Of a stretch of DNA of 32,350 nt, positions 10,903 through 28,353 are shown piece by piece; the first letter of the stretch is position 1, and each line of letters opens with the position of its first letter. The stretch covers positions 1 to 32,350 of the forward strand of contig CAZCVW010000004.1 of NCBI GenBank assembly GCA_964502185.1, in the 5' to 3' direction. The position numbers were made by a program, and so were the translations under genes. A model generated the notes under the pieces. That model saw only the letters and a list, made by a program, of their open reading frames with translations, did not search any database and was not told where the DNA came from. This stretch comes from an uncultured Burkholderiales bacterium (GTDB taxonomy: Bacteria > Actinomycetota > Acidimicrobiia > IMCC26256 > BP-133).

Positions 10903-11162
10903 GCCGGCCTGTTGGGCGATCGAGGAGGTGACCACATAGAGCATCAGGCGTCAGTGGTTCAACGGCGGGAGTTATAACCTAGAGCGGGAAGATCCAGGAG
11001 TACATTCTGCTGGTGCAGGGCGGCACCACGACATTTCTCGCGCCGGGCGCACGATCGCTTCGCCGTGTGCAGGATCTGCCATGAGACGAATTGCGGATCG
11101 CCGGAACGCCGGGCGGATCCGCGGCGTGGAAGTAGACGATTTTCTGAGGAGGAATGTCTGCG

Positions 11163-12410
11163 ATGAACAAACTCGAACTGATGCCCCTTGAAGAGACTGT
11201 CAAGTGGGCAAAGCACAATTCTTGGTATGTGGCTGACCTGCTGGCGAGGAGGGGCACGGAGGGCGAAAACCCCCTGATCCCGAGGGCCGAGTACGAGATG
11301 CTGTCCTTCCAGACCACCTTCCTGCAGCACCCATGGCTGTACCTCTGGCTAGGGGAGAAGGTGGGGATGGAGGGAATAAGAGCGACCTGCAGCTCAGGCC
11401 ACCGAGAGTTCGGGATCAAGACCATTACCCCGTGCAACATACAGTGGGGCTGTGGGATCGCCTTGTTCGGCAGGTTGTTTCTCATCGATGGCGGCCTTAT
11501 CGGGCCCAACGACTACATCGATAACCTCAGGATCATCTACAGCTTCTGGAGGACCGTGTTCGAGGGCTATATGCGGGAAGGGAAGCCGGCGGTCATGGAC
11601 GTGGGGTACGCCCTGCAAGTGCTCGACCAGGACGTGGTGGAGGACCTGAGTCTGCAGGTGGAACCTCTAGACGACCCGGAGCTGCGGGCCACAGTGGGCC
11701 AGTTCAACTCCTTAATCCAGCTCATGGGCTTCCTGGACCACTATGACTGCCGGCTGGGCCTGGGCGACACCGGCCCCTATGAGGTGGGCGACAGGCTGAT
11801 CCTGGTCAGGGACTGCTTCGTGAACGAGAAGTCGTTCCCATGGACCTTCGTGGTCGGGGACCTGCCGTTCTCCTACAGCCTGGTGTTGACCTACGACAAG
11901 AAGAAGATGATGCGAGACCGCAAGAGCGGCAAGATGAAGATGTTCTCCATATACAACACCGGCACCCTGTTTTGCGACCCCCCTGATTACGAGGATCAGG
12001 CGTTGCTGGAGGTCGCGGTGTACATGAGAGACGAGGATTATCCCAATGGCAAGACAACCAGGATACCGCTGAGCGAGCTGCAGACCCACATCCAGAAACT
12101 GGAGGCGGCCGTGGAGCGGATGTACATGTACCTGGCCATGAAGCCCAAGTTCGACAAGATACTGGAGGGTAATTGGGTCTACGTGGCCGCTTCGCTTCCC
12201 TATGTCCGCGCCCATGACCTCGAGGCGGAGGCGGCCGCGATGGGGTTCTGGGATATGGACCTTAGGAGCATGGAATACTTGCTCAAGGGCTATACCAAGG
12301 CTGGGGAAGTCCAACGGAACGCGACGGCTGGTCTGGGGGCTCCTCCTCCGCAGATGCCCGGGTTCCGCTGCAGGGGGACCAAGGACGGTAGGTACGAGAT
12401 AGTACGTTAA
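11163..12410 (+). CDS. Hypothetical protein, no family recognised (low-GC island gene 1)
   Basis: This is a long ORF in a compositionally distinct stretch. It uses AGG/AGA/ATA codons (CTG GCG AGG AGG; GGA ATA AGA) that are rare in the flanks. GAGGAGGA at 11146-11153 abuts the first ATG (11154) but is well spaced for the second ATG at 11163. Confidence 0.6.
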   Translation: MNKLELMPLEETVKWAKHNSWYVADLLARRGTEGENPLIPRAEYEMLSFQTTFLQHPWLYLWLGEKVGMEGIRATCSSGHREFGIKTITPCNIQWGCGIALFGRLFLIDGGLIGPNDYIDNLRIIYSFWRTVFEGYMREGKPAVMDVGYALQVLDQDVVEDLSLQVEPLDDPELRATVGQFNSLIQLMGFLDHYDCRLGLGDTGPYEVGDRLILVRDCFVNEKSFPWTFVVGDLPFSYSLVLTYDKKKMMRDRKSGKMKMFSIYNTGTLFCDPPDYEDQALLEVAVYMRDEDYPNGKTTRIPLSELQTHIQKLEAAVERMYMYLAMKPKFDKILEGNWVYVAASLPYVRAHDLEAEAAAMGFWDMDLRSMEYLLKGYTKAGEVQRNATAGLGAPPPQMPGFRCRGTKDGRYEIVR

Positions 12411-12450
12411 TGCAAAAGGCCAGCAAGTGGCTAAACGGAAAGGGGCGACA

Positions 12451-12522
12451 ATGGCTGAGCCAGGAATCAAGGAAGAAGGCGAGACAATGGCTGGGCTAAG
12501 AGTCAAGGAAGAAAGCGAGAAG
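12451..12522 (+). repeat. Imperfect 36-bp tandem repeat (2 units, 29/36 identical) at the 5' end of island gene 2
   Basis: Hand alignment of atggctgagccaggaatcaaggaagaaggcgagaca against atggctgggctaagagtcaaggaagaaagcgagaag. Each unit begins with ATG. Confidence 0.8.
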
Positions 12523-12945
12523 AGGTTTCAGTGGTCCCACGAGGAGTGGGAGGTTGACCTGAACCTCAAGACGGCCGATGAGTTTGAGGCGTGGCTCAAC
12601 AAGGAGACCAAGTACTTCATCAGGGCCAACGCCGGCTTCTATGGCCAGTGCGTCATCGTGTGCATAGAGTCTAAGGATGATGAGTTCCTGTGCTACGTGG
12701 ACTACTACAAGGGTAAGTTCCCGCCCTGGTACACCGCCGAGGAGCTGGCGGTGCTGGACATAGACAAGCTTCGCATGGAGCCCGCCGAGATTAAGTGGGA
12801 TAACTGGGAGTGGACGACCTTAAGGAAAGATGACTTTCCGCTGCGTCTGAAGGAGGTCATTTTCCTGTACCCGCCCCAGCAGCCGACCATACCGTGGCTC
12901 TTCCTGTCGCCAGAGGAGAGCGGCTTGGCGACGATGGAGATATAG
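12451..12945 (+). CDS. Hypothetical acidic Trp-rich protein, no family recognised (low-GC island gene 2)
   Basis: The ORF has AAAGGGG 5 nt before ATG 12451. GTG 12427 and ATG 12487 are alternative starts. The N-terminus is an imperfect 36-nt tandem repeat (MAEPGIKEEGET / MAGLRVKEESEK). Confidence 0.55.
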   Translation: MAEPGIKEEGETMAGLRVKEESEKRFQWSHEEWEVDLNLKTADEFEAWLNKETKYFIRANAGFYGQCVIVCIESKDDEFLCYVDYYKGKFPPWYTAEELAVLDIDKLRMEPAEIKWDNWEWTTLRKDDFPLRLKEVIFLYPPQQPTIPWLFLSPEESGLATMEI

Positions 12946-12966
12946 GAAGGAAGAGGCGGAGCACAA

Positions 12967-13446
12967 ATGGATAACGACATCGCAGGGTACAGGTATATCG
13001 GCCAGGGCTACAGTGTGGTGCCCGTGGGGAAGCACGAGGGTATTGCCATGAACGTCACGACGCCACAGGAAATGATAAAGCTGATGTCCAACCCGCAGAA
13101 AATCAAGGAGACCGTGGTGATCACGCCCGGCGGCACCACCACCTTTGTGGCCCCGCTTCTTTACAAGAAGCCGGCCGGCATCGTGACCTATGCCGGGACG
13201 CCGGAGTCTCATTTGGGAATCGTAGGGCGGAACTTTGGTATCGCCATCGTCATGACGCTCAAGCTGGAAGGGATGGACTCCATCCCCGATGGCACACCCG
13301 TGCTGCTCGACTGTGAGGGCAAGCTAGGGCGCGTTTACGTAAAGGCAGAGGCGGGCGCCGAGTCGCAGCAGTCAGCGGATGGGTCGGTCCAGTCGCAGCA
13401 GTCAGCGGATGGGTCGGTCCTGGGGGATGGGTCGGTCCTCGGGTAG
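12967..13446 (+). CDS. Free-standing PEP-utilising-enzyme mobile (phosphohistidine swivel) domain protein
   Basis: GQGYSVVPVGKHEGIAMNV...ETVVITPGGTTTFVAPLLYKKPAGIVTYAGTPESHLGIVGRNFGIAIVMT...DGTPVLLDCEGKLGRVYV follows the swivel-domain pattern (G..G.a.G......ilV...t.P......a.GivT..Gg.tSH.aivaR..giP.v). The conserved His sits in TPESH. There is no ATP-grasp or acceptor domain. The C-terminal tail is repetitive. Confidence 0.8.
   Translation: MDNDIAGYRYIGQGYSVVPVGKHEGIAMNVTTPQEMIKLMSNPQKIKETVVITPGGTTTFVAPLLYKKPAGIVTYAGTPESHLGIVGRNFGIAIVMTLKLEGMDSIPDGTPVLLDCEGKLGRVYVKAEAGAESQQSADGSVQSQQSADGSVLGDGSVLG
13361..13438 (+). repeat. 30-bp perfect tandem repeat x2 plus a partial third unit, in frame at the 3' end of the swivel-domain gene
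   Basis: 13361-13390 equals 13391-13420 (agtcgcagcagtcagcggatgggtcggtcc). ggatgggtcggtcc recurs at 13425-13438. The repeat encodes SQQSADGSV SQQSADGSV LGDGSVLG. Confidence 0.9.
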
Positions 13447-13538
13447 GAATTGCAATGGGGGAAAAGGCTAATGCTGTCTAGTGCGTTGGGGTGATGTGGG
13501 GCGACCTAGCGCGCCGGACAACGTGTTGCGGGGTGACT

Positions 13539-14105
13539 ATGCTGGATGAACATGCATTTTTGGTGTTGAACGCGCTATACCTCAAAAAGATGGCTTCAGT
13601 CGGAGACTTGGCTGAAATTTCGGGCCTGCCTGCCGACCAAGTACGGGCAATGGTGAGCGGCTTCGTGGAGCGAGGTTGGTTGCTGGATATGGGCGGCGAG
13701 CTTCTCATCCAGCCCGAGGGAATGGCGCAGGTGCAAGGCTACTATCGCGAAACCTATTCGGACCTTTCGCAAAGCGAAGAGATGCCGCGATGGCATGCGC
13801 GGTTCGAGCCCATCAACAGTCAATTCATCAAGCTTGTCACCGACTGGCAGCAAACCGGAGGCGATCCCAGAGTCCAGGACCGCGTAATTGCGACGGTCGA
13901 GCGGCTCGTCAAGTTAATCGGCGAGATTACGCAGCTGGTGCCACGGTACGCCGGCTACATTCGCCGGTTCGAACGAAGTGTGACCACAGTCGACCAAGGG
14001 AATCCTGACTTCGTTTGCACTCCGACCGTCGATTCTTTGCACAACATTTGGTTCGAGTTCCACGAGGACATCCTCATGATTCTAGGGAAGGAGCGGACGG
14101 AGTGA
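13539..14105 (+). CDS. Winged-helix-like N-terminal domain protein of unknown family, paralogue A (low-GC copy); partner of the PPDK-like gene
   Basis: It is a paralogue of 14382..15002, sharing RWHARFE/RWMARFE and the near-identical end DSLHNIWFEFHEDILMILGKERTE / DSVHNIWFELHEDILVILGKERLE. The N-terminus LVLNALYLKKMASVGDLAEISGLPADQVRAMVSGFVERGWL looks like a wHTH. I chose the start at ATG 13539 by alignment with the paralogue. Its stop is overlapped by the GTG of the truncated PPDK fragment (GTGA). Confidence 0.65.
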   Translation: MLDEHAFLVLNALYLKKMASVGDLAEISGLPADQVRAMVSGFVERGWLLDMGGELLIQPEGMAQVQGYYRETYSDLSQSEEMPRWHARFEPINSQFIKLVTDWQQTGGDPRVQDRVIATVERLVKLIGEITQLVPRYAGYIRRFERSVTTVDQGNPDFVCTPTVDSLHNIWFEFHEDILMILGKERTE

Positions 14106-14381: not shown

Positions 14382-15002
14382 ATGACCGGGGCCGACATTG
14401 AGGACACCAGGTACGCCGTCCTGAGCACGATCGTGTTCAAGAAAATGGCGACGGCGGGGGCGGTGGCCAACGCTACGGCCGTCGACCTCGATACGGTGCG
14501 GGCGGTCCTCGACGACCTGGAGTCGTCCGGAGCGGTGTTCCGGGCCGAGGACCAGGCCTTCCCCACCGAGATCGCCGAGAAGCAGGTCCGGGAGTACGCC
14601 GACAGCCGCTACGGGGCCGTGCGGAGCGACCCGGCCGTCGAGCGCTGGATGGCCCGCTTCGAGACACAGAACCGGCATTTCCTGGAGACTGTCTCGGCCT
14701 GGCAGCAGATCGACGCCGGCGGCAAGAAGGTGGCGAACGACCACACCGATCCGGAGTACGACGCCCATGTCCTCGCCCGCGTCGACGCCACGCTGGCCCG
14801 GATGGGCAAGCTCATCGACGAGCTGGCGACCAAGGTGCCCCGGGTCGCCCGCTACGGGGAGCGGCTGCAGGAGGCCTTCGACAAGGTCGACGCCGGCGAC
14901 CCCCGCTACCTCTCCGATCCGACGATCGACTCGGTGCACAACATCTGGTTCGAGCTTCACGAGGACATCCTCGTCATCCTGGGAAAGGAGCGGCTCGAGT
15001 GA
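14382..15002 (+). CDS. Winged-helix-like N-terminal domain protein of unknown family, paralogue B (high-GC copy); translationally coupled to the PPDK-like gene
   Basis: ATG 14382 follows a GGGGGGA RBS. It is a paralogue of 13539..14105. Its TGA stop (15000-15002) overlaps GTG 14999 of the next gene. Confidence 0.7.
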   Translation: MTGADIEDTRYAVLSTIVFKKMATAGAVANATAVDLDTVRAVLDDLESSGAVFRAEDQAFPTEIAEKQVREYADSRYGAVRSDPAVERWMARFETQNRHFLETVSAWQQIDAGGKKVANDHTDPEYDAHVLARVDATLARMGKLIDELATKVPRVARYGERLQEAFDKVDAGDPRYLSDPTIDSVHNIWFELHEDILVILGKERLE

Positions 15003-15181
15003 CTTCCCGCTCGGCCGGGACTGGCTCGGCCGGCCCGACGCTCGTCTACCGCTTCGAGGACGCCGACGCCTCCCAGCCGGGGCTCTTCGGGGGCAAGGGA
15101 GCGGGGCTCGCCCGGATGACCGCCGCCGGCCTACCGGTACCGCCGGGATTCGTCATCACCACCGAAGCGTGTCGCGCCTTC
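14919..15181 (+). repeat. Imperfect direct repeat, copy 2 (pairs with 14022..14284)
   Basis: See copy 1. This copy spans the paralogue B / PPDK-like gene junction. Confidence 0.8.
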
Positions 15182-17539
15182 ATGGCCAACGGGGCGGTCC
15201 CCGAGGGCTTGATCGAAGACGTCCACCGGCATCTGGCCGAGCTGGAGCAGACGACCGGGCGGCGCTTCGGGGGCGGACCGACGCCGCTCCTCGTGTCGGT
15301 ACGGTCCGGGGCCCCCATCTCGATGCCGGGGATGATGGACACGATCCTGAACCTCGGACTCAGCCAGGAGGCGGCCGTCGCCCTGGCCGCCGCCACTGGT
15401 GACGTCGCCTTCATGGCCGACGTCTACAGCCGGTTCTACCGCATGTTCGCCGACATCGTGCTGGGGGGCGGTGGCGACGCCGTCACCGAGGCCGCCGGCC
15501 CGATCCGGGCGGCGATTACGCCCAGCTCCGATGCCACCGCCGTGTTCTCCGAACTCCAGGCGGCGTGCCGGCAGGCGACGCTCGACGAGGTCGGCGACGC
15601 CGTCCCCGACGACCCGTACGAGCAGCTCGAGCGGGCCATCGGCGCCGTGTTCGAGTCATGGAACTCCCGCCGGGCCGTCACCTACCGTCGGTTCCACAAG
15701 ATCGCCGACGACCTGGGCACCGCCGTGGTCATCCAGACGATGGTGTTCGGCAACCTCGGACAGACATCGGGCACCGGGGTGGCGTTCACCCGTGACCCTC
15801 TCACCGGGGAACCGACCCTCTACGGCGAGTACCTCGAAGGGGCCCAGGGCGAGGACGTGGTGGCGGGCACGTCGACGCCCGCCACCCTGGCGCAGGCGGC
15901 CGAGCGGATGCCGGAGGTGTTCGCCGAGTTCACCCGGGTGGCCCAAGAGTTGGAGAGCGTCTACCGCGACGTGGTCGACATCGAGTTCACCGTGGAGCGG
16001 GGGAAGCTCTACCTGCTGCAGGTCCGCAGCGCCAAGCGCACGGCCGAGGCGGCCATCCGGATCGCCGCCGATTTCCTGCGTGACCGCAAGGTTGCGCCGG
16101 CGGAGGCGCTGGCCAAGGTCTCGACGGAGCAGATCCGCCAGGCCGAGCGGCCCAGCTTCGAGACGGCGGCGGTGGCCGCCGCCCGACAGGCCGGGGCGCT
16201 GGCGTCCGGCATCGGGGCGTCGCCGGGACAAGTGAGCGGGATCGTCGTGGTCGACCCCGACCGGGCGGTCGAGGTGGCCGCCACCGGCGAGTCGGTGATC
16301 CTGGCCCGGCCGACCACGAGCCCGCTCGACCTCCACGGAATGATCGCCGCTACCGGGATCGTAACCGCCCTCGGCGGCGCCACCAGCCACGCCGCGGTGG
16401 TGGCCAGGGCGCTGGGAAAGCCCTGCGTGGTCGGCTGCGCCGACGTCGAGATCGATCTCGACGGGCGTGGCTTCCGGGTAGGTGAACGTTCATTCGCGGA
16501 GGGCGATCCCGTCTCCATCGACGGCGCCAGCGGCGAAATCTTCGCCGGCCGGCTGCCGACGACGCAAGTGGAGCTGTCGGGGGCGGACCTGGCGGAAGTG
16601 CTGGGCGTGGCCGACGACGCCGCCCGTTGCCGCCTCTTCGGGCGGGCGACGACGCCCGAGCAGGTGAAGAGCGTGCTCGACCGGGGCGTGCAGGCCATCG
16701 CCACCCGTCTCGGGGACGTGCTCGCCACCACCGGGCACCTCGAGGAGCTCATCGCTCTCCTCGTCGCCCACGAAGTCGACGGGACCAAACTGGACGGCTT
16801 CGAGGAGATCATCGCCGACGTCCTCACGCCCGTCCTCCTGGCGGCCGGCGAGGCCGACATCGTCGTCCGGGCCGTCGACCTCTCTTCCGACGAGGCGATG
16901 GAGCTTCTCGACGCGCCGGCCCTCCTGGCGCGACACCCCCGCTTCCACCTGCCCCTAGGAGTGCCGGAGTTCCTGACCATCCAGGTCGCCGGGTTAGCCC
17001 TGGCCGCCAAGCGCAGCGGCCACCCCCGGCCGCCCCAGCTGAGCGTCCGCCACGTGACCGATCCCAACGAGGCGCAGGAGATCCAGCGGATCGCCCGGGA
17101 AGAGCTGCTCCGGCGGGGGCTCGGTCCGGTGCTCGTGGGACCGACGCTCACGAGCCCCCGGGCCGCTCAACTCGCCCCCGAGATCGCCCGGTACAGCGAC
17201 CTCATCTGGCTCGAGGTCCGGGGCCTCCAGGCCAAGCTCTACGGGTACCCGGCGAGCCTGTGGTTCACCGGTGACCCGCTCGACGAGTACGTCCGGAAAC
17301 GGATGCTCTCGAGCGACCCGCGGGCCACGATGGACGAGTCGATGCGCGTGCTCCTCGCCTCGGTGGCGACGGCGCGGATCTCGAACCCGGGCTGCCGAGT
17401 AGGCGTGCGGCTGAGCGGCCCGGTGTCAGAGGAGCTGGCCGCCGGCTTCTACCGACTCGGGTTCCGCACCTTCGCCGTCGACGCCGACGAAGTGCGGACG
17501 GCGCGGCTGGCCTTCGGCAAGGCGGCGCTTTCGGAGTGA
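14999..17539 (+). CDS. Pyruvate,phosphate dikinase-like protein: intact ATP-grasp and phosphohistidine domains, degenerate PEP/pyruvate-binding domain
   Basis: N-terminal PPDK signatures are present ([91 protein letters not shown]). The swivel domain is present ([22 protein letters not shown]). The C-terminal third is collinear with the PPDK TIM barrel but lacks its catalytic motifs (see findings). Confidence 0.85.
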   Translation: [846 protein letters not shown]

Positions 17540-17576: not shown

Positions 17577-18353
17577 ATGGCGAACGAGCTGAAGGAATGG
17601 CGGAGGGTCCTCGAGGGGCTTCCCGGGGACGAGGTCTACCAAGTGACCGAACCCCTCGACGGGGTGGAGTTCCTCCATCTCATGGAACAGCGCCGGATGG
17701 CGTTCTGGAATTCGAAACCGGACAACGAGAAGAGTCACTACCAGGGCTACAGCGCCATCTCCCGGGAGCAGCTGATCGACTCCCTGCGGCGGCAGACGCA
17801 CGCCGAGCTCGCCGCCGTCCACGCTCCGAACCTGAGCTTCGACGTCTGCCCCTGGCAGGACATCAAGATGGACTACGCCCGCCAGATGAACGAGGAGGGC
17901 CGGCACTTCAACCTGATCCGCGAACACCTGCTCGACCTTGGCGGCTCGTGGGACGACGACTACAGCCCCGACTTCCCCGAGTGGAACGCGTTGTTCAACC
18001 TCTTCCTCACCGTTGAGAACCGCTACTTCCTCGACCCCGCCAAAGAGGTCGTGGCCCGAGCCAGCGTGCTGAACTTCGGCATCGAGGGCTGGGACCACCT
18101 CTACGTGCAGCCGACATTCCTGAAATTCATTAGCGACGTCGACGAGACCCTGGCCCAGATCTACGAGGAAATCATCATGCCCGACGAGACGTTCCATTAC
18201 TCGATCGGGCAGCGGATCCTGCGGGACCACTGCGACCGCCCCGACCTCCAGCGTCTCGCCGTTTATTTCATCGACCGAGGGATGGTCGCCCACCACGCCG
18301 TGAACGTCGCCTTCCCCGCCTACCACAAGCGGCAGGGGTTCCATTCCGAATGA
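17577..18353 (+). CDS. Ferritin-like four-helix-bundle diiron-carboxylate protein (resembles the DUF455 family as I remember it)
   Basis: The E ... ExxH ... E ... ExxH ligand pattern is present: THAELAAVH, QMNEEGRHFNLIREHL, NFGIEGWDH, MPDETFHYSIG. An AAGGAG RBS lies before ATG 17577. GC content is visibly lower than in neighbouring genes. Confidence 0.65.
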   Translation: MANELKEWRRVLEGLPGDEVYQVTEPLDGVEFLHLMEQRRMAFWNSKPDNEKSHYQGYSAISREQLIDSLRRQTHAELAAVHAPNLSFDVCPWQDIKMDYARQMNEEGRHFNLIREHLLDLGGSWDDDYSPDFPEWNALFNLFLTVENRYFLDPAKEVVARASVLNFGIEGWDHLYVQPTFLKFISDVDETLAQIYEEIIMPDETFHYSIGQRILRDHCDRPDLQRLAVYFIDRGMVAHHAVNVAFPAYHKRQGFHSE

Positions 18354-18850
18354 TCTCTGAGAAGCTGACGGATTCGAACGCAGGGGTCGCCGGATCGGCG
18401 GCGACCCCTCCCGAGAAACTCCATCCGCCCACGACCGGTGAGGACGCGTCCACTTGGCCGGCGCTGCAGCCCGGAAGCGAGGTCGCCCCCGCCCCCGCGC
18501 CACCCGCCGAGGGTCACCGGCTCTTCGACACCCAACTCCACCGGTCGGACCTCATTGAACGGAAACCGGTCCGAGTCAAGCGCGAGGGCGAGGACATCGT
18601 CTGCGTTCTCGCGGGCGGGGCAGTCTACGCCTTCAGGAACCGCTGTCCGCACACCGGTTACCTCCTGCACGAGGGGCGGGTCCGCGGCTGCGTCGTCACC
18701 TGCATCTCGCACCTGGCGCAGTTCGACCTCCGAGACGGCCACGTGGTGGCGCTCCCGATGGAGGGCCGGAGCATCGAGACCGGTCCCCTGGCCGTCTACC
18801 GGGTCGTCGAGCGGGATGGCGCCGTCTTCGTCGAACTCCCCGAGGAGTAG
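18350..18850 (+). CDS. Rieske [2Fe-2S] domain protein (ferredoxin-type)
   Basis: The Rieske motif CxH...CxxH is present: NRCPHTGYLLHEGRVRGCVVTCISHLAQFD. ATG 18350 overlaps the previous stop (ATGA). The first ~55 residues are low-complexity, so the real start might be internal. Confidence 0.8.
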   Translation: MISEKLTDSNAGVAGSAATPPEKLHPPTTGEDASTWPALQPGSEVAPAPAPPAEGHRLFDTQLHRSDLIERKPVRVKREGEDIVCVLAGGAVYAFRNRCPHTGYLLHEGRVRGCVVTCISHLAQFDLRDGHVVALPMEGRSIETGPLAVYRVVERDGAVFVELPEE

Positions 18851-18853
18851 GCC

Positions 18854-20368
18854 GTGCCGAGCACGGCTCCTTGCCGGATGTTCCTTTTCCGTCACGGGCA
18901 GGCGCAGATGCCCGACGAGCGGGGACAGTTCTGGAATTACTCCGAGGCCGAGCTGGCGCCGGCGGGGCGACGCCGGGCCGCGGAGCTGGCGGCCGAGCTG
19001 GCGGCCGTCCCCCTCGACGCCGTGTTCACCTCGGACCTGCTCCGGGCCCGGCAGACGGCGGAGGCCATCGCCGCGCCTCAGGCCGCCCCGGTCTTCCCCG
19101 ACGCTCGACTGCGGGAGCTGAACATCGGGGACTTCGAGGGGATGACGCTCCCGCGGCTGCGCCAGGTCGACCGCCGCTTCCTGCCGTGGCTGGAGGTCTA
19201 CTTCGAAGGCCGCCACGCCGGTGTGGACTTCCACGTCCCGGCCGACCTGCCGTGGCCCGGAGGCGAGTCCGTGGCCGGGGCGCTCCGGCGGGTGCTCCCC
19301 GCCTTCCTCGAGATCGCCCGCGGGTGGCAGGGCCGCACGGTCGCCGTGTGCACCCACGCCTACGTGCTCCAGGCACTCCTGTGCCACATCGTCGGGGTTG
19401 ACGTCGCGCAGTACTGGAGCTTCGCCGGCCTGCCTGCCTCGCTCACGTTGGCGGAGGTCGGCTCCGACGGCCGCGGCGTCGTCCGGACCCTGAACGGCGA
19501 CCTCGAGCTCGCCACGCTCGTCGGCGGCCGGCTGCCGCTGCGTCGAGAAGAAGGGTGCCGTCCGGCAGGCGGCTCCACCGTGGCCGGCTCCGGCTCCGAC
19601 GACCTGCGCTCCACCTGCCGGGTCTTCCTCGTCCGTCACGGGCAGGCGATGGTCGTCGAGGAGGGGGGGCCGGTGTTCAGCCATCATCCCATTGGGTTGA
19701 CAGCCGACGGCCGCCGGCAGGCGCAGCGGCTCGCCTCGACGCTGGCGCCGGTCCGCCTCGACGCCGTGTACACCTCGGACCTCAACCGCGCCCGGGAGAC
19801 GGCCGAGCCGGTGGCCGCCGTGCAGGGACTGTCGCCCGTCGTCGTTCCGGAGCTGCGCGAGATCTCGCTCGGTGACTTCGAGGGAATGACGTTGGCCCGG
19901 GTGCACGCCGAACATGACCGCTTCATCCCTTGGTTGGAGGTGGCCTTCAACGAGCGGTTCCCCTCCGACGAGTTCCACCATCCCGCCGAACTCGTCTTCC
20001 CCGGCGGGGAGAGCGTGGTCTCGGTGTACGAGCGCGTCATCGAGCCGTTCCTGCGCATCGTCCGAGCTCACCTCGGGGGGACGATCGCCGTGGTGGGCCA
20101 CGGATGGGTGATTCAACCCCTGCTCTGCCATGTCCTCGGCGCGCCCACCACCAGCTACTTCCGCTTGCAGCTGCGCTATGCCGCTCCGGCGCTCGTGGAG
20201 GTCGACGCCGACGGGTTCGGGGTCCTCGAAGTCCTCAATGCGGGCACCCACGTGGGGGAGGCGACGGGACCAGGCGTGGCGGGCGCGGAGGCGGGGGCGG
20301 CGACGCAGGAGAGGTTACGGTCCGACGAGAGCCCGGCGCCGCCGAGGAGGAAGGGAGGCAGCAGATGA
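18854..20368 (+). CDS. Fusion of two histidine-phosphatase (phosphoglycerate-mutase-like) domains
   Basis: There are two full repeats, each with RHG (MFLFRHGQAQ / VFLVRHGQAM), SDLxRAxxTAE, GDFEGMTL, PGGES and a distal catalytic His (VCTHAY / VVGHGW). GTG 18854 lies 6 nt after a GAGGAG RBS. Confidence 0.8.
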   Translation: MPSTAPCRMFLFRHGQAQMPDERGQFWNYSEAELAPAGRRRAAELAAELAAVPLDAVFTSDLLRARQTAEAIAAPQAAPVFPDARLRELNIGDFEGMTLPRLRQVDRRFLPWLEVYFEGRHAGVDFHVPADLPWPGGESVAGALRRVLPAFLEIARGWQGRTVAVCTHAYVLQALLCHIVGVDVAQYWSFAGLPASLTLAEVGSDGRGVVRTLNGDLELATLVGGRLPLRREEGCRPAGGSTVAGSGSDDLRSTCRVFLVRHGQAMVVEEGGPVFSHHPIGLTADGRRQAQRLASTLAPVRLDAVYTSDLNRARETAEPVAAVQGLSPVVVPELREISLGDFEGMTLARVHAEHDRFIPWLEVAFNERFPSDEFHHPAELVFPGGESVVSVYERVIEPFLRIVRAHLGGTIAVVGHGWVIQPLLCHVLGAPTTSYFRLQLRYAAPALVEVDADGFGVLEVLNAGTHVGEATGPGVAGAEAGAATQERLRSDESPAPPRRKGGSR

Positions 20369-20556
20369 AGGCTCGTGTGGATGCCGGCCTGTGCCAGGCC
20401 CACGGGCAGTGCAACGACATCTGCCCCGACATCTTCAAGATCGACGAATGGGGCTACGCCTACACCGAAGACGAGCCGGTGCCGGAGGGACTCGAGCGTG
20501 CCGTCCGCCAGGCGGTCACCGCCTGCCCGGAGCGGGCCATCACCGTCGAGGACTGA
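20365..20556 (+). CDS. Small single-cluster ferredoxin (3Fe-4S/4Fe-4S type)
   Basis: The 63-aa product MKARVDAGLCQAHGQCNDICPDIFKIDEWGYAY...AVTACPERAITVED has the CxxxGxCxxxCP...CP pattern of actinobacterial P450/oxygenase ferredoxins. ATG 20365 overlaps the upstream stop (ATGA), and a GGGAGG RBS is present. Confidence 0.8.
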   Translation: MKARVDAGLCQAHGQCNDICPDIFKIDEWGYAYTEDEPVPEGLERAVRQAVTACPERAITVED

Positions 20557-20580
20557 CCGGCAGGGACGGGAGGAGTCAGG

Positions 20581-21675
20581 ATGACGGGAACCACCACCGA
20601 GCCCGCCGTCGACGTGGTCGACCACCGGAAGTTCGAGGAGCGGGTCGCTCGCCTCTTCGTTCACGTGGGGGTGCCAGCCCCCCAGGCCGCGGGGATCGCC
20701 GAGATCCTCGTCCTGGCCGACCTGCGGGGGATCGAGAGCCATGGCACCAACTTCGCCCCCCGCTACATTCGGGGGCTGGCCCGGGGCGAGCTCAATCCCG
20801 ACCCCCAGCTGCGGGTCGTCGGAGGGCGTGGTGCGGTGGCCGTGCTCGACGCCGACAACGGCCTCGGTTACGTCTCGGCCCGAGCCGCCATGGAACGCGC
20901 CATCGAGCTCGCTGCCGACCACGCCGTCGGCGCCGTCGCCGTGCGCAATTCGAACCACTTCGGAATGGCCGGCTTCTACGCCCTGCAGGCCACCGACGCC
21001 GGGATGATCGGCCACGCCACCACGGACGGGCCGCCCCACACGGTGGCCTGGGGCACGCGCCGGCCCGTCGTCTGCAACAACCCGATCGCCTGGGCCTTCC
21101 CCACCGGAACGCCGCCGCCCGTGCTCGTCGACACGGCCCTCACCGGGGTGAAGGAGAAGATCCGGCTGGCGGCCCAGCGGGGCGAGGCGATCCCGCCGGA
21201 CTGGGCGGTCGGTCCCGACGGGCGCCCCACCACCGACCCCGCCGTTGCCCTCGAGGGATCCCTTCTCCCCATCGGCGGCCCGAAGGGCTCCGCCCTCATC
21301 GTGGCCAACGAGTTGCTCTCAGGAGCGCTCTCGGGAGCCCACTTCTCCTTCGAGATCTCCCCGGCGCTGGTGATGGGCTCCGACCACCACGACCGGTGGG
21401 GCTGCGGGCACTTCCTCCTCGCGCTCGATCCCTCCGGCTTCGTCGGGACGGACGCATTCCGCAAGCGGGCGGACGAACTCGTCCGCGCCCTGCGGGAGGC
21501 GGAGCCGGCCGAAGGCGTCGAGCGCGTGTACCTCCCGGGCGAGCGGGAGTGGCTGCTCTCCGAGGAGCGCAGGCGGTCAGGTCTGCCCGTTGCCCGGGCG
21601 ACGCTGGCGGCGCTCGACGCCGTCGCCGTCGAAGTGGGAGCGGGCGTCGCGTTCGGTGAACTGGCCGAAGGCTGA
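20581..21675 (+). CDS. Ldh2-family (type-2 malate/L-lactate dehydrogenase-like) NAD(P)H-dependent 2-hydroxyacid/2-oxoacid oxidoreductase
   Basis: Family motifs are present: LRGIESHGTNFAPRYIRGL, AVRNSNHFGMAGFYA, NNPIAWAFP, GGPKGSALIVANELLSGALSG. A GGGAGGAG RBS lies before ATG 20581. Confidence 0.85.
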   Translation: MTGTTTEPAVDVVDHRKFEERVARLFVHVGVPAPQAAGIAEILVLADLRGIESHGTNFAPRYIRGLARGELNPDPQLRVVGGRGAVAVLDADNGLGYVSARAAMERAIELAADHAVGAVAVRNSNHFGMAGFYALQATDAGMIGHATTDGPPHTVAWGTRRPVVCNNPIAWAFPTGTPPPVLVDTALTGVKEKIRLAAQRGEAIPPDWAVGPDGRPTTDPAVALEGSLLPIGGPKGSALIVANELLSGALSGAHFSFEISPALVMGSDHHDRWGCGHFLLALDPSGFVGTDAFRKRADELVRALREAEPAEGVERVYLPGEREWLLSEERRRSGLPVARATLAALDAVAVEVGAGVAFGELAEG

Positions 21676-21720: not shown

Positions 21721-22542
21721 TTGCCAATACAGAAAGGCTCGGCTGTGGAGGAACTCGCAGGGCCGTTTGCTCCGGTCAAGCGCCGACGTGCCTTCGAGGA
21801 CATCATCGTCCAGATCGAGAACGCCATTCATGAAGGGCGTCTCACGGTGGGCGACCGGCTCCCGCCCGAGCGTGAGCTCGCCGAGATCTTCCAGGTCTCC
21901 CGGGCGTCGGTGCGCGAGGCGCTGCGAGTCCTCGAGGCGTTCGGGGTCCTGAGCGCGCGCCGGGGAACCGGACCGGACTCCGGTTCGATCGTCTCGGCGC
22001 AGAACGAGAGCCCGCTCTCGGGTCTCCTCCGGCTGTACGCCTCACTCTTGAAGATGCCGCTTCTGGACCTCCTCGAGGTGCGCGAGGCGCTCGAGACGCT
22101 CACCGCGCGCCGGGCGGCCGGGCGGGCCGGCCCCGAGGACCTCGAGCGTCTCGCTGCCATCATCGAAAGCATGCGCAACTGCCGCGAGCCCGAGGAGTTC
22201 CTGACCCTGGACACGGAGTTCCACCTCACCCTGGCTCGGGCGTCGGGGAACTCGGTCGCTCCCCTCATCATGGGGGCCCTCCGGGACGCGATTGCCCAAC
22301 AGATGCTGCGGGCCTTCAAGGCGCTCGAGGAGTCGGGGAACTGGGTGTCGGAACGCACCTGGCTGGTGCGTGAACATGCCCAGCTGATGGAGACCATCGC
22401 GTCGAGAGACCCGGACGCCGCCGCCCACGCCTTCAGTCAGCACGTGCACGACTTCTACAAGCGGGTCCTCCAGGACCACGAGGTCGCCCCCCAGCAACCG
22501 GCGCGGGCCGCCGCCCCGCAAAAACGCCGCCGGCTCGCCTGA
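21721..22542 (+). CDS. GntR-family transcriptional regulator, FadR subfamily (FCD C-terminal domain)
   Basis: The N-terminal wHTH is AFEDIIVQIENAIHEGRLTVGDRLPPERELAEIFQVSRASVREALRVLEAFGVLSARRGTG. The all-helical C-terminal domain carries an FCD-like pattern (LLEVREALE..., FHLTLARASGN, EHAQLMETI). The start is uncertain: TTG 21721, or GTG 21745 with GAAAGG upstream. Confidence 0.85.
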   Translation: MPIQKGSAVEELAGPFAPVKRRRAFEDIIVQIENAIHEGRLTVGDRLPPERELAEIFQVSRASVREALRVLEAFGVLSARRGTGPDSGSIVSAQNESPLSGLLRLYASLLKMPLLDLLEVREALETLTARRAAGRAGPEDLERLAAIIESMRNCREPEEFLTLDTEFHLTLARASGNSVAPLIMGALRDAIAQQMLRAFKALEESGNWVSERTWLVREHAQLMETIASRDPDAAAHAFSQHVHDFYKRVLQDHEVAPQQPARAAAPQKRRRLA

Positions 22543-22565: not shown

Positions 22566-23615
22566 TCAGGGCCGGAGCTGCTCCTCGGCCAGCAGTCCGG
22601 CCAGCACCGCCTCGGCGAGCGCTAGGAACTGGTCGACACTGGCCACGCCTCCCGCCAGTTCGCCCACCAGTACCCGCAGCGGAGGCCGGTAGGGCACGAG
22701 GTAGTCGAAGACGAGGTCGCCGTCTGCCCGTCCGAGCATCATGACGCCGGCGTACTCGGCCACGTGCGAGACGAACTCCGCCGAGCGGGCCTCGTCGCGG
22801 ACGGAGGCGTAGGCCTCGTAGCACGCACGCGCCTCGGTGAGGAGCGCCACCCGCCAGTGCGGGCGGGCGAAGCCGAGAAGGACGAAGTGGGCCAGGATGA
22901 TGCCGACGTCGAAGGCGGGATGGCCCCACTGGGCACACTCGAAATCGAGCTTGGTGATGCCGCCGTCGTGGACGAGCACGTTCTTCGGGGTGATATCCGC
23001 GTCGACCAGCACCCGTGCCTCGTCCCGGTTGCGGCGTAGGGCCGTCTCGATCAGCGGGGCGAGGTCCGGGTTAGCCGACGCTGCGCTGCGGACGCTCTGC
23101 TCCCGGAGAGCGAAGCCGGGATTGAAACCGAAGTCCCGGGCGATCTCCGGGGACTCGAGCGTGATGGCGTGGAGATGGCCGACATAGTCGCCCAGTCGCC
23201 GGCCGGTGCCGGGATGGAACCGCCCGGCCAGCAGCTCTGTGTCGTAGAGCACGGCGTCATCGGGCGCCGGCGTCATCACCGACACGTAGTTCTCGGGGTC
23301 GTCGTCCAGGATCGTCGGGATGGGGGCAAGGGATCCGAGGAGCCTCTTGATGGCCTTCATGGCCGCCACTTCCATGAGGGCGCGCCGGATGTCGGCCTGC
23401 AGGACGGTGCGCCGAGCGGCCTCGAACGACTGCTTCACGATGTAGACCCGGCCGCCGCCCTCCACCCGGAAGACGTTGTTCACGTAGCCGCCCGAGAGCG
23501 TTCGCACGACGGCGTCACCGCTGTGCTCCAAAAGGCCGCGGCCCAGCAGGTACCCGACGATGTTCCTCTCGTCAAGCTCGATCAGCGGAGAGGCGGGCCG
23601 CTGCGAGGTCACCAT
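22566..23615 (-). CDS. Aminoglycoside-phosphotransferase-fold small-molecule kinase (methylthioribose-kinase-like)
   Basis: It has SGGYVNNVFRV (nucleotide loop), VKQS (Lys), VLVDADITPKNVLV (catalytic loop) and LDFECAQWGHPAFDVG (metal-binding segment). Its start lies 16 nt downstream of the HcmA-like stop, with a GAAAGG RBS. Confidence 0.8.
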   Translation of the reverse strand: MVTSQRPASPLIELDERNIVGYLLGRGLLEHSGDAVVRTLSGGYVNNVFRVEGGGRVYIVKQSFEAARRTVLQADIRRALMEVAAMKAIKRLLGSLAPIPTILDDDPENYVSVMTPAPDDAVLYDTELLAGRFHPGTGRRLGDYVGHLHAITLESPEIARDFGFNPGFALREQSVRSAASANPDLAPLIETALRRNRDEARVLVDADITPKNVLVHDGGITKLDFECAQWGHPAFDVGIILAHFVLLGFARPHWRVALLTEARACYEAYASVRDEARSAEFVSHVAEYAGVMMLGRADGDLVFDYLVPYRPPLRVLVGELAGGVASVDQFLALAEAVLAGLLAEEQLRP

Positions 23616-23630
23616 GTCCCGGCCTTTCTT

Positions 23631-25336
<1,706 letters not shown>

Positions 25337-25340
<4 letters not shown>

Positions 25341-26311
25341 GGGCGTCCTTTCGATCTGCCGCTCAACTCGCGCTCGAGGAGCGCGTGCGCGGCCGTCCAT
25401 GGGTCCGTCGTGCGCCGGCACAGCGCCTCGACCGCGGTCTCGAAGGCCGATCCGGGAACGGGCCGGTCGAGGCGTTCGTGGACGAGGGCGGTGAGCAGCG
25501 TCTTCAGCCGGTGGCGTGCCATCAACCGCCGGCGCTCCTCCATGCTGCCGGAAGCGAGCAGCCAGTCGTAATGCTGGTCAAGGGCCTCGGCCAATTCGGT
25601 CACGCCCTGACCGCTCTCGGCGCACGTCGGAAGCACCGGAGCGAGCCATCCATTTACGGCGCTGAAGCCGAGCATGGACCTCAGCTCGGCCATCGTGCGG
25701 TCAGCACCCTCCCGATCGGCCTTGTTCACGACATGCACATCAGCTGTCTCCAGCAGGCCCGCCTTGAGCGCCTGGACATCGTCTCCCAGCCCGGGGGCGG
25801 AAACGACGACGACGCTATGAGCCGCCTGCGCGATCTCAACCTCGTCTTGGCCCACGCCCACCGTCTCCACCAAGACGACGTCCTTGCCGGCCGCGTCGAG
25901 CACGGCGACCGCGTCGGCGGTAGCACGGGCGATCCCGCCGAGCGCGCCACGAGTGGCCATGGAGCGAATGAACACCTCGGGGTCGTCCCACAGCGCCTGC
26001 ATCCGAATCCGGTCGCCGAGGACCGACCCGCCCGAGTAGGGACTGGACGGATCGACCGCCACGATCCCGAGGGTCAAGCCCCGCCGGCGGAGGTCAACGC
26101 CGAGGGCTGCGACCAGGGTGCTCTTGCCGGCGCCCGCCGGGCCGGTGACGCCGATCACCCGTGCCCGGCCGCCCGCTCGGTAGAGCTCGGCCAGGTCGTC
26201 CGCCCCGTCGAGCGCTCCCCGTTCGACGCGGGAGATCATCCGGGCGATGGATGCAACCTCCCCGGCGAGGACGCCTCGGGCCAGGTCGGTGTCCGCCCCG
26301 GTGGCCGTCAT
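25337..26311 (-). CDS. meaB: MeaB/ArgK-type G-protein chaperone for B12-dependent mutases
   Basis: It has a P-loop (GVTGPAGAGKSTLV), AVDPSSPYSGGSVLGDRIRM, ETVGVGQ and VNKAD. It is translationally coupled on both sides by ATGA overlaps. Confidence 0.9.
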
Positions 26312-26742
26312 CCGGCCTGCGTCGCCTGCCGGTCGCGGACGAGACGCTCTACGGTGGCCACGATGGTCGCCGGAGGTGTGTCCTGCCCGAGAATGTCCGC
26401 CACGCCCATCGCCTTCAGGGCGGCCACGTCTTCATCCGGCATGACCCCACCGGCGACGAGGACCTTGTCGTCGACTCCGTGCTGCCGCATGAGCTCCAGG
26501 AGACGCGGCAGGAGCGTCATGTGCGCGCCCGAGAGCAGGCTGACGCCAATGGCATCGACATCTTCTTGCACGGCGGAGGCGATGACCTGCTCGGGGGTCC
26601 GGTGGAGGCCAGTGTAAATGACCTCCATGCCGCCGTCACGCAGGGCCCGGGCGACCACCTTCACGCCGCGGTCGTGGCCGTCGAGGCCCACCTTGGCCAC
26701 CAAGACCCGGATCGGGCCCTGCGCACCGTCGACCGGCGGCAT
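26308..26742 (-). CDS. hcmB: Acyl-CoA mutase small subunit, cobalamin-binding domain (operon 2, HcmB-like)
   Basis: The 144-aa product MPPVDGAQGPIRVLVAKVGLDGHDRGVKVVARALRDGGMEVIYTG... contains DxHxxG. A GGGAGA RBS lies before ATG 26742. The rest of the listed ORF (to 27075) is not protein-like. Confidence 0.9.
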   Translation of the reverse strand: MPPVDGAQGPIRVLVAKVGLDGHDRGVKVVARALRDGGMEVIYTGLHRTPEQVIASAVQEDVDAIGVSLLSGAHMTLLPRLLELMRQHGVDDKVLVAGGVMPDEDVAALKAMGVADILGQDTPPATIVATVERLVRDRQATQAG

Positions 26743-26763
26743 GTTCGTTCTCCCTCTTGTCAA

Positions 26764-26776
26764 TTGGTCAGACCAA
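26764..26776. promoter_or_regulatory. Putative FadR/GntR-type operator, copy 4 (TTGGTCAGACCAA; perfect 6+1+6 dyad)
   Basis: This is a perfect palindrome around a central A, 21 nt upstream of the hcmB-like ATG. Confidence 0.6.
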
Positions 26777-26836
26777 GGTACTCCAGGACCCAGCGGAAGG
26801 CAACGTCGGCCGACCGCCATCGGGTTGAATCCCCGG

Positions 26837-27046
26837 TCACGCCAGAACGCGAACGTCTCCGCCGTTCGCCACGTCAACGGGGCCATCGAAGAAGCGCTGG
26901 GCCTCCGCGATGGCTCGTTTCGGGTCGCTTCCTGGTCGCAGGTGCGTGAGGACCAGGCTACGGACGCCGGCTTCGGCGGCGATGGCACCCGCCTGGACAG
27001 TCTGGATCGGCGTGGCCGGCGAACGGACGTACGAGCTTTGGGTTGA
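26837..27046 (-). pseudogene. 3' relic of a metallo-beta-lactamase-fold hydrolase gene (no start codon, N-terminal ~200 codons missing)
   Basis: My hand translation immediately after the ZIP stop, in the same frame, gives STQSSYVRSPATPIQTVQAGAIAAEAGVRSLVLTHLRPGSDPKRAIAEAQRFFDGPVDVANGGDVRVLA*. This is the characteristic C-terminal (H)xTPxQA...AGVxxLVLTHL block of MBL-fold proteins. It is not in the ORF track because it has no start codon. Confidence 0.45.
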
Positions 27047-28294: not shown

Positions 28295-28353
28295 CTCAGG
28301 TACCCCTCCGGGGACGGCGCGCTGGCGGGGCCAGACGACGCGGGCCGGGAGGT

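Follow-up and report, generated by a model that had tools for sequence, protein, structure and literature searches.

What would a cell do with a ferritin-like diiron protein, a Rieske protein, a tandem histidine phosphatase, a small ferredoxin and an Ldh2-family dehydrogenase that are encoded in close succession? The question is raised by positions 17577-21675 of a 32,350-nucleotide stretch of DNA (GenBank contig CAZCVW010000004.1; the whole stretch is called the window), which comes from a permafrost metagenome, has a GC content of about 68% and finds its nearest relative among species genomes in a metagenome-assembled genome (MAG) of the Acidimicrobiia. The five genes do form an operon, one that is rare, conserved and built from known superfamilies in a combination that is uncharacterised as far as the literature was searched. 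Judged by sequence comparison, they behave as one functional unit together with a phosphotransferase encoded upstream, and they sit inside a known gene cluster for the breakdown of 2-hydroxyisobutyrate (2-HIBA) and acetone, between hcl and the hcmAB/meaH genes. We favour, at somewhat less than an even chance, the reading that the block forms one half, for oxygenation and processing, of a conserved catabolic operon acting together with a dikinase module and the 2-HIBA genes.

The five-gene block and its conservation

The five open reading frames (ORFs), all on the forward strand, lie where an earlier note on this DNA had placed them, and the ORF list and Pfam bear out the domains assigned there. 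The first gene (17577..18353) encodes the putative oxygenase component, a ferritin-like diiron protein of 258 residues from a family bordering on DUF455. Next come genes for a Rieske [2Fe-2S] ferredoxin (18350..18850; 166 residues, consisting of a core of about 110 residues with a match to Pfam Rieske and a disordered N-terminal extension), a tandem histidine phosphatase (18854..20368; 504 residues, GTG start, two His_Phos_1 domains), a small single-cluster ferredoxin (20365..20556; 63 residues, with a CxxHxxC...CP pattern and matches to Fer4_15 and Fer4_13) and an Ldh2-family NAD(P)-dependent 2-hydroxyacid/2-oxoacid oxidoreductase (20581..21675; 364 residues, Ldh_2).

The tight junctions described previously were also found on reading the sequence. 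There are ATGA overlaps at 18350 and 20365, a TAG-GCC-GTG junction that leaves a 3-nt gap at 18851-18853, and 24 nt ahead of the ATG at 20581, while a 37-nt gap bearing an AAGGAG site precedes the diiron ATG at 17577. The statement that all five genes have good ribosome-binding sites holds for four of them, which show clear Shine-Dalgarno-like sequences, but the site of the Rieske gene is weak (CAGGGG). Position 14382, named earlier as a possible start of a single transcript, opens a separate gene of 206 codons; the PPDK-like gene starts at 14999 with a GTGA overlap. The lower GC content of the diiron gene is real (62.5% versus 67-73% in its neighbours). Its GC content at third codon positions (GC3) is 0.90 and equals that of the neighbours, with 0.34 at second positions (GC2), so that the dip is attributable to amino acid composition, and a foreign origin of this gene is ruled out by the equal GC3. 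A promoter and terminator scan, which is uninformative for a high-GC actinobacterium, returned no internal promoter-like site and two terminator-like sites against 7.1 expected from shuffles. An Rfam scan of the DNA returned no riboswitch or other RNA.

Co-occurrence, which the earlier note had proposed as a check, was examined with the window proteins against species genomes, 14 metagenome-contig loci and exact-protein look-ups. The order diiron-Rieske-phosphatase is found in every related locus that is long enough, with two exceptions, the Pseudonocardia sulfidoxydans locus (L012), which is devoid of the phosphatase, and a degraded-looking contig (L007), which is devoid of the Rieske gene. 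The ferredoxin and Ldh2 genes follow wherever the contig continues, with genes for NuoF-like or HIBADH-like proteins inserted; a HIBADH-like dehydrogenase gene stands ahead of Ldh2 in the Chloroflexi and Dormiibacterota loci and lies nearby in several others and in the window. Altogether, no fewer than 10 distinct loci keep the gene order, and they come from Acidimicrobiia, Solirubrobacterales, Pseudonocardia, other Actinomycetota, Chloroflexi and Dormiibacterota, and start/stop codon overlaps are present in orthologous loci as well. The coupling of the five genes proposed from the single sequence is thus upheld by an order shared across phyla and by codon overlaps beyond the window.

Transcripts of an orthologous operon are available from a relative. 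The Solirubrobacterales orthologue, whose diiron protein is 72% identical to that of the window, occurs in many metatranscriptomes of permafrost and peat. RNA contigs assembled from four runs cover every gene of this locus, and they extend across the interval between the dikinase and diiron genes and across the diiron-Rieske and phosphatase-reductase junctions. These contigs, which are short and unstranded and may include carried-over DNA, support co-transcription in a relative of the window organism.

The diiron protein and its putative electron chain

The proposed E/ExxH/E/ExxH ligand set is invariant in an alignment of 16 family members, as E77, E107xxH110, E170 and E204xxH207, together with many Arg, His and Tyr residues. 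The two ExxH motifs and the two further carboxylates all lie in predicted helices. The match of the protein to DUF455 (PF04305) is sub-threshold, at 30.9 bits versus the gathering cut-off of 34.3, and the DUF455 matches of its relatives are also flagged as weak. A word-index search of 5.8 billion proteins gave 16 relatives, the 15 full-length ones being 59-95% identical, and an exhaustive hidden Markov model search of 1.84 billion cluster representatives gave 45 proteins at E ≤1e-3 and 5 at E ≤1e-30, the more distant matches being weak DUF455, MiaE-like or ferritin-like proteins. The family, recognised by two invariant peptide motifs, is present in 6 of 185,579 species genomes. Its profile has no real match among the sequences of the PDB. 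The AF2 model is all-helical with a pLDDT of 90.8, and its Foldseek matches are weak (best E 0.012, TM 0.60-0.66, identity 12-19%) and mixed, comprising heme-oxygenase-like (HO-like) diiron enzymes (FlcD, PqqC, CADD, AetD) and ferritin-like proteins (T4moH, MMOH, COQ7, Dps-like). FlcD (8w1q, 9b9m, 3bjd) and PqqC stand at the top, and the ferritin-like proteins score similarly. By its predicted fold and ligands, the protein is a diiron-type helical-bundle protein of a new, very small family. With a Rieske partner in almost every case, it is predicted to be of the catalytic ferritin-like type and not a storage ferritin.

The partner itself is well defined. The Rieske protein scores 55 bits against Pfam and is closest, among NCBIfam models, to dioxygenase ferredoxin subunits; its CPH...CxxH motif is kept in all orthologues and in the out-group, and its gene is directly 3' of the diiron gene in all intact loci. 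Even the out-group homologue P0018 retains the diiron-Rieske pair, together with a HIBADH-like gene, an anion transporter and ETF.

Two genes, at 5061-5825 of L017 and 1782-2615 of L018, encode the diiron protein's closest homologues in the out-group. One of these genes is flanked by an MFS transporter and a PucR-like regulator, and its cluster also holds two Xsc (sulfoacetaldehyde acetyltransferase), two Pta, TauE and an NtaA/DmoA monooxygenase. The order of the other locus is MFS anion transporter, HIBADH-like, diiron, Rieske and fused ETF.

How would electrons reach the diiron centre? It had been noted that the window holds no flavin reductase, and this is so: tblastn with the NuoF-like protein of its relatives was empty, no such Pfam domain was found in the window, and the gene is likewise absent from the window's closest relative. 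A gene for a NuoF-like FMN/4Fe-4S protein lies just upstream of the ferredoxin gene in Solirubrobacterales, Pseudonocardia, L013 and L029. It occupies the interval between phosphatase and ferredoxin in L003 and L029 and that between Rieske and ferredoxin in L012. At 11858-13039 of L013, the NuoF-like reductase and a Fer4_15 ferredoxin are fused in one ORF of 393 codons, which supports a functional link of the two. By position and domain content, the NuoF-like protein is the predicted flavin reductase that the earlier note found lacking. The window's ferredoxin scores 56 bits against Fer4_15 (Pfam), and its CxxHxxC...CP pattern is conserved. The Rieske protein and the ferredoxin had both been named as electron donors; gene order agrees with the Rieske protein as the direct donor, but the ferredoxin probably relays electrons from the NuoF-like reductase to the Rieske protein. 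Domain content, gene order and the fusion together point to a chain from the NuoF-like protein through the ferredoxin and the Rieske protein to the diiron centre.

This arrangement resembles the four-component monooxygenases T4MO and ToMO, in which a reductase passes electrons to a Rieske protein (T4moC) and then to the diiron hydroxylase. As there, a Rieske protein stands beside an E/ExxH/E/ExxH diiron protein, the relatives of the block have an NAD(P)H-linked reductase, and T4moH and MMOH are among the fold matches. The Rieske donor that marks group 2 of the soluble diiron monooxygenases (SDIMOs) is likewise adjacent in all intact loci, with its motif kept. The hydroxylase of T4MO/ToMO is, however, an alpha-beta-gamma complex, whereas here a single 258-residue protein is found, and the SDIMO hallmarks (an alpha subunit of about 500 residues with Phenol_Hydrox, beta, gamma and effector) have no Pfam match in the window or in orthologous loci. 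The reductase of T4MO/ToMO is FNR-like, while that of the block's relatives is NuoF-like (FMN/4Fe-4S) and is joined by an extra small ferredoxin. The small diiron hydroxylases of the DUF455/MiaE/COQ7 kind share with our protein the size, the all-helical fold, the ligand motif and a weak profile similarity (DUF455/MiaE_2) at the level of the wider family, COQ7 being among the fold matches. The protein of the window nevertheless falls below the DUF455 threshold, has no PDB sequence match, forms a distinct clade of about 16 clusters and has a dedicated Rieske partner. The HO-like diiron oxidases (FlcD, AetD and CADD, with the PqqC/TenA fold) supply the top Foldseek matches, but at E ≥0.012 and 12-19% identity, and the ligand spacing of the diiron protein is the classical ferritin ExxH pair. 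To our knowledge, HO-like diiron oxidases usually need no Rieske partner.

The remaining two proteins are less easily given a reaction. The two His_Phos_1 stretches of the phosphatase (286 bits in total, Pfam) are 47.6% identical to each other, and both halves carry RHG motifs (FRHGQ, VRHGQ) and downstream His residues; the protein is two-domain in the Acidimicrobiia-like and Solirubrobacterales lineages and single-domain elsewhere. It scores 211.9 against a cut-off of 162.9 with the alpha-ribazole phosphatase model TIGR03162, but this score is summed over two domains, and there is no cob context. By its domains the protein could be a phosphatase or equally a phosphomutase. The unit of an oxygenase step, a dephosphorylation step and a 2-hydroxyacid redox step envisaged before therefore keeps its coupling and its catalytic-type diiron protein, but the dephosphorylation was a reading of the domain, which a phosphomutase would fit as well. 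Ldh2 matches Ldh_2 with 369.9 bits over profile positions 2-332 of 333, and its best solved relative is the L-sulfolactate dehydrogenase 2x06 (E 7e-61). It reaches no NCBIfam equivalog cut-off (sulfolactate, ureidoglycolate, diketogulonate and others), with for example 224 versus 500 bits.

The dikinase module and the 2-hydroxyisobutyrate cluster

The gene that precedes the block (14999..17539, forward strand) encodes a PPDK-like dikinase of 846 residues, with an ATP-grasp domain, a swivel His domain and a divergent PEP-utilizer-type barrel (PEP, phosphoenolpyruvate). Residues 16-568 align to the PPDK of C. symbiosum with E 1e-142, and the GGATSHAAVVAR motif is kept. TIGR01828, the equivalog model of full-length PPDK, scores 636 versus a cut-off of 843 bits, in a match confined to positions 3-557 of its 865. 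A profile of the C-terminal domain still finds the PEP-utilizer barrel (PPDK C-domain E 6e-17, Enzyme I E 2e-6), with an altered pyruvate site: in the profile alignment (E 8e-10) the Glu of MIEIP is replaced by Ser, the ND pair by R-A/G and the Cys by Arg/Asn. Two Arg positions are retained, and Glu745, Asn768/Asp769 and Cys831 are replaced. In the numbering of the C. symbiosum enzyme, we take Glu745 and Asp769 to be Mg ligands, beside Asn768, and Cys831 to be the proton donor; the two retained Arg positions presumably bind the phosphate of PEP. A true pyruvate/PEP enzyme (PPDK) is ruled out, with the Mg-ligand Glu/Asp, the Asn and the proton-donor Cys replaced. The loss of the Mg and Cys residues of the pyruvate site, with the catalytic His and the ATP-grasp domain kept, argues for an acceptor other than pyruvate. 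The PPDK-like phosphotransferase of the earlier note is thus real in its nucleotide and swivel domains, but its pyruvate/PEP residues are gone, and it is part of a four-protein module.

Elsewhere the four genes of this module run in the order stand-alone swivel, protein of about 470 residues, winged-helix protein and PPDK-like protein. The fixed module was found in Pseudonocardia sp. WMMC193 (L014), Cryptosporangium (L020) and Bradyrhizobium sp. 6(2017) (L016), and also in L021, and orthologues of the 418-residue protein of the window and of the swivel accompany the PPDK-like gene in Pseudonocardia and Bradyrhizobium. In the window, the genes at 11154..14105 (forward strand), which encode a 418-residue protein, a 172-residue protein, a stand-alone swivel of 159 residues (PEP-utilizers; Pfam) and a winged-helix paralogue of 204 residues, are the counterparts of the first three module proteins. 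The dikinase's partner is encoded at 14382..15002 (forward strand); this winged-helix protein has 206 residues, carries a novel helical domain as well and is paralogous to the 13491-14105 product. It has no Pfam match and an AF2 pLDDT of 94.7, with its match to known folds limited to the N-terminal winged helix-turn-helix; it has more than 140 homologues, which adjoin a PPDK-like gene in the loci inspected. A search with the C-terminal domain of the dikinase gave only seven matches, all fragmentary, and the 418- and 172-residue proteins have no relatives in Pfam, NCBIfam or the PDB.

Two features of the module bear on its link to the block. The oxygenase block is inserted between the winged-helix and PPDK-like genes in L012, L013/L030 and L029, and the presence of the block inside the module in three lineages is the strongest evidence that dikinase and block share a pathway. 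In L014, L016, L020 and L021 the module adjoins an orphan bacterial microcompartment locus, which contains EutN, BMC-H, BMC-T, aldehyde dehydrogenase, actin-like, Ldh_1-like, Zn-dependent alcohol dehydrogenase (Zn-ADH), HAD and DUF7064 proteins and a PucR-like regulator. The dikinase module may be the signature enzyme of this microcompartment; the dikinase is not mentioned in the microcompartment catalogue literature. A triad of kinase, phosphatase and 2-hydroxyacid dehydrogenase therefore recurs in non-homologous form, with HAD and Ldh_1 in the microcompartment loci and His_Phos and Ldh_2 here, which suggests a phosphorylated intermediate that is later dephosphorylated and dehydrogenated.

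In architecture the module is comparable to dikinases that derive from PEP synthase/PPDK and serve acceptors other than pyruvate, namely PpsABC (phenylphosphate synthase) and rifampicin phosphotransferase, with which it shares the ATP-grasp domain, the swivel phospho-His, the multi-protein build and a lost pyruvate site. It differs in that its partner proteins are without known relatives and its C-terminal barrel is retained in altered form. Dikinases of the phenylphosphate synthase type are reportedly a family known from the 2004 work of Schmeling and colleagues.

The module has a visible history in the window. The segment 14102..14282 (forward strand) is what is left of the 5' end of a second PPDK-like gene; over 181 nt it shares 85% identity with 14999-15179, and it opens with the same GTGA overlap, 3' of the paralogous winged-helix gene (13491-14105). 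By this pattern, the dikinase pair was evidently duplicated once and one copy was later deleted. The genes at 11154-14105 have a GC content of 56-61% and a GC3 of 0.69-0.82 versus 0.85-0.93 in the genes that follow, and the 418-residue protein is 88% identical to its counterpart in a Solirubrobacterales MAG; this stretch looks like a recently transferred sub-block.

What surrounds block and module had been missed. Upstream, hcl (9432..10859, forward strand) encodes a 2-HIBA-CoA ligase that scores 513 bits against 6HDW (2-hydroxyisobutyryl-CoA synthetase) and 247 against PaaK. Downstream, on the reverse strand, lie hcmB for a B12-binding subunit (26308-27075; Pfam B12-binding), meaH for a MeaB-like GTPase (25337-26311; Pfam MeaB) and hcmA (23631-25421; 816 bits against 4R3U_A). 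The Ile90, Asp117 and Gln208 positions are kept in HcmA, and it is these Ile, Asp and Gln positions that separate HcmA from methylmalonyl-CoA mutase. Also on the reverse strand, an actinobacterial 2-hydroxyacyl-CoA lyase that depends on thiamine diphosphate (TPP) is encoded at 2728-4530 (NCBIfam NF058623, 744 versus a 600-bit cut-off; 552 bits against 7PT1). The genes hcmA, meaB and hcmB are found in every related locus that extends far enough, and hcl usually; in L011, L026 and L007 the lyase gene immediately precedes the diiron gene, and some related loci carry a 3-hydroxyacyl-CoA dehydrogenase. A GntR/FCD-family regulator (21721..22542, forward strand; Pfam) is kept 3' of Ldh2 in L003, L008, L013 and L029. 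The window thus has orthologues of the ligase HCL, HcmA/B, MeaH and the lyase of the bacterial 2-HIBA pathway (HCL and HcmAB/MeaH, with lyase and MimABCD in actinobacteria), and its GntR regulator is as described for that pathway (PMC7176365).

Neither the block nor the dikinase module belongs to the pathway as described, and published descriptions of it make no mention of the five block genes. Joint-term literature searches found no paper in which the 2-HIBA mutase is linked to a dikinase or to a ferritin-like protein, and what the Desulfococcus and Desulfosarcina gene clusters for acetone have in common with the window is limited to the TPP enzyme and the mutase. The earlier remark that the combination is not known from a characterised pathway thus holds insofar as no publication with the set was found, but it passed over the known cluster in which the block is embedded. 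The 2-HIBA cluster of the isobutylene degrader Mycolicibacterium sp. ELW1 (ibc cluster 2) lists a histidine phosphatase, an ilvC paralogue, an MFS transporter and a TPP lyase without assigned role (PMC13188929). In Actinomycetospora, a diiron monooxygenase hydroxylates the acetone that the lyase sets free (PMC7176365).

Several neighbours are recorded here in their own right. A second HcmA-like large subunit (4996-6639, reverse strand), 50% identical to the main copy, lies beside the lyase gene, has Val at the Ile90 position and is without its own small subunit or chaperone; it may be specific for a different 2-hydroxyacyl-CoA. A HIBADH-like dehydrogenase is encoded at ~6901-7812 (forward strand; profile matches). 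Upstream of hcl, a multi-pass membrane protein of 429 residues (8036-9325) with no family match and no counterpart in related loci is a candidate transporter. An APH-family kinase gene (22566-23615, reverse strand; Pfam APH) begins 15 nt after hcmA and is the last gene of the hcmB-meaH-hcmA operon (22566..27075). The kinase is kept beside mutase or dikinase genes in L003, L008 and L012; no relative was found in the PDB, with only a weak N-terminal similarity to methylthioribose (MTR) kinase. Between hcmB and the gene for a two-domain multicopper oxidase (28354-29424), no credible gene is assignable to 27076-28353, the long ORFs of which are without family matches and resemble out-of-frame Arg/Pro-rich artefacts.

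A proposed route and its rivals

Our best reading of this set is a phosphorylation-assisted oxygenase route that feeds or flanks 2-HIBA/acetone metabolism, and we infer its substrate and catalytic steps as follows. The dikinase module (PPDK-like protein, swivel, protein of about 420-470 residues and winged-helix protein) would use ATP to phosphorylate a pyruvate-sized, neutral or weakly bound acceptor. Candidate acceptors are a methyl ketone such as acetone, giving an enol phosphate, or a tertiary or 2-hydroxy compound such as 2-HIBA. Electrons from NAD(P)H would enter through a NuoF-like flavoprotein encoded outside the window and run down the chain outlined above, as domains, gene order and fusion suggest, and the diiron protein would use O2 to hydroxylate the phosphorylated intermediate. 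The tandem histidine phosphatase would then remove or shift the phosphate, and Ldh2, with the HIBADH-like dehydrogenase in most relatives, would oxidise the resulting hydroxy compound or acid. Through hcl, HcmAB/MeaH and the TPP lyase the route would join known metabolism, either by supplying a 2-HIBA-type acid or by consuming acetone released by the lyase. An acetone-oxidising and a 2-HIBA-making version are about equally plausible.

Several observations weigh against this proposal. With weak fold matches of the diiron protein (best E 0.012), hydroxylation, desaturation, oxidative cleavage and N-oxygenation are all candidate reaction types. 2-HIBA is a tertiary alcohol and hence not oxidisable by Ldh2, and an aldehyde dehydrogenase, needed in most schemes, is missing from the cluster. 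The P. sulfidoxydans locus has no phosphatase, no dikinase is found on the short contigs at hand for Chloroflexi and Dormiibacterota, and the winged-helix protein could simply be a regulator. The lyase is found only in the window, L007, L011 and L026, and not within 10 kb in Solirubrobacterales or L013, a patchy distribution that weakens the link to acetone. The RNA evidence consists of assembled, unstranded contigs from a related organism.

Two specific versions of the favoured reading differ in the direction of the route, and each is, as specified, a serious but unlikely candidate. In one, acetone would pass through phosphoenolacetone and a hydroxylated phospho-intermediate to acetol/propanediol, lactate and, by Ldh2, pyruvate, replacing the MimABCD of Actinomycetospora. 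The lyase in the window, directly upstream of the diiron gene in three other loci (L011, L026, L007), speaks for this, as does the precedent of a lyase paired with a diiron acetone hydroxylase (PMC7176365). PPDK phosphorylates the enol form of a methyl ketone; together with His_Phos (phosphoglycerate-mutase fold) and Ldh it belongs to the folds of lower glycolysis, a set that would fit carboxylate-free C3 analogues; the dikinase-linked microcompartment with its Zn-ADH, aldehyde dehydrogenase, Ldh_1 and HAD proteins fits a volatile C3 substrate; and the habitat is permafrost and peat. The PPDK-like C-domain, however, is without the Cys and Mg residues for enolisation, the mutase accompanies the block everywhere but the lyase in some loci only, and the cluster has no aldehyde dehydrogenase. 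A more far-reaching form, in which a four-protein PPDK-derived phosphorelay turns a volatile carbonyl or alcohol, ideally acetone, into a phosphate ester or enol phosphate for hydroxylation by a new class of single-subunit, ferritin-like diiron oxygenase fed by the NuoF-like/ferredoxin/Rieske chain, the module being the microcompartment's signature enzyme, would be a new kind of activation and is distinctly improbable. In the other version, the block would make 2-HIBA or 2-hydroxy-2-methylbutyrate for hcl and HcmAB from a branched C4/C5 acid, diol, phospho-ester or the like, with 3-hydroxyisovalerate, 2,3-dihydroxyisovalerate, a tert-butyl or isopropyl compound and aminoisobutyrate as speculative precursors. 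In its favour, the block splits hcl from the GntR-hcm genes, which are contiguous in classical clusters, and 2-HIBA is stated to have no known natural source (PMC7176365). That hcl is present implies a free acid as intermediate, a HIBADH-like gene is often found in the loci, and the ELW1 2-HIBA cluster also has ilvC and a histidine phosphatase (PMC13188929). Yet no known chemistry ties an Ldh2-type reaction and a phospho-intermediate to 2-HIBA, all of the candidate precursors are speculative, and the dikinase module is also found without hcm or hcl genes.

The remaining explanations are less probable. That oxygenase, phosphatase and Ldh2 act on a sulfolactate-type hydroxy acid, in the manner of ComB and ComC and with oxygenolytic C-S cleavage, would agree with the cluster of the nearest full-length out-group diiron homologue (two Xsc, two Pta, TauE, NtaA/DmoA), with sulfolactate dehydrogenase as the best solved relative of Ldh2, with the resemblance of HIBADH-like proteins to sulfolactaldehyde reductase and with a ComA fragment near the cluster in L007. 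The sole cultured carrier, P. sulfidoxydans, is presumably a sulfur-compound oxidiser and was counted on the same side. The sequence of ComA, ComB and ComC (PEP to phosphosulfolactate, sulfolactate and sulfopyruvate) does share its logic with the block, from enol phosphate to 2-phospho-hydroxy acid, phosphatase and Ldh2-family dehydrogenase, but the phosphatase of the block is of a different fold, and the block has no ComA/ComB homologues or sulfonate genes. Xsc, sulfite exporter, sulfite dehydrogenase and ComA/ComB are likewise not found in the window or in intact orthologous loci, the link to the 2-HIBA mutase is universal, and the Ldh2 similarity is at family level only (224 versus the 500-bit cut-off), so that we consider an organosulfonate route very unlikely. 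We give still less credence to a supporting role in which a CobC-like phosphatase and redox proteins serve cobalamin supply or reactivation for the mutase with no catabolic step. A B12 mutase always accompanies the block, the alpha-ribazole phosphatase model is exceeded (211.9 versus 162.9), and cobalamin genes stand with a histidine phosphatase in the ELW1 2-HIBA cluster (PMC13188929); that score nevertheless adds up two domains, an adenosyltransferase and other cob genes are missing, the diiron oxygenase, Ldh2 and dikinase have no known B12 role, out-group diiron-Rieske pairs occur without a mutase, and the block is inserted in a dikinase operon. Least credible is the absence of any functional unit, by chance adjacency or with the diiron protein as a non-catalytic ferritin for iron storage. 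The sub-threshold DUF455 match would allow it, but the order is shared across several phyla, codon overlaps occur here and in orthologues, RNA contigs of the relative span the junctions, the Rieske partner is adjacent in all intact loci, and a multi-helix protein of 258 residues is unlike the 4-helix ferritin/Dps monomer of about 160. Chance adjacency and storage ferritin are effectively excluded by the gene order, the overlaps, the Rieske partner and the protein size.

What the operon means reaches beyond its own reaction. The HcmAB mutase and the 2-hydroxyacyl-CoA lyase are used in synthetic C1 and methacrylate pathways, while the natural source and metabolic setting of 2-HIBA are open for the field, and an operon welded into the cluster offers a testable lead. 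It defines a new small family of putative diiron oxygenases with an unusual electron chain, and a new multi-protein, PPDK-derived dikinase whose second home is an uncharacterised microcompartment. Experiments are within reach, since the type strain Pseudonocardia sulfidoxydans NBRC 16205, one of the carriers, is in culture. With an orthologue transcribed in thawing permafrost and peat soils, the operon may bear on the turnover of small volatile carbon compounds there.

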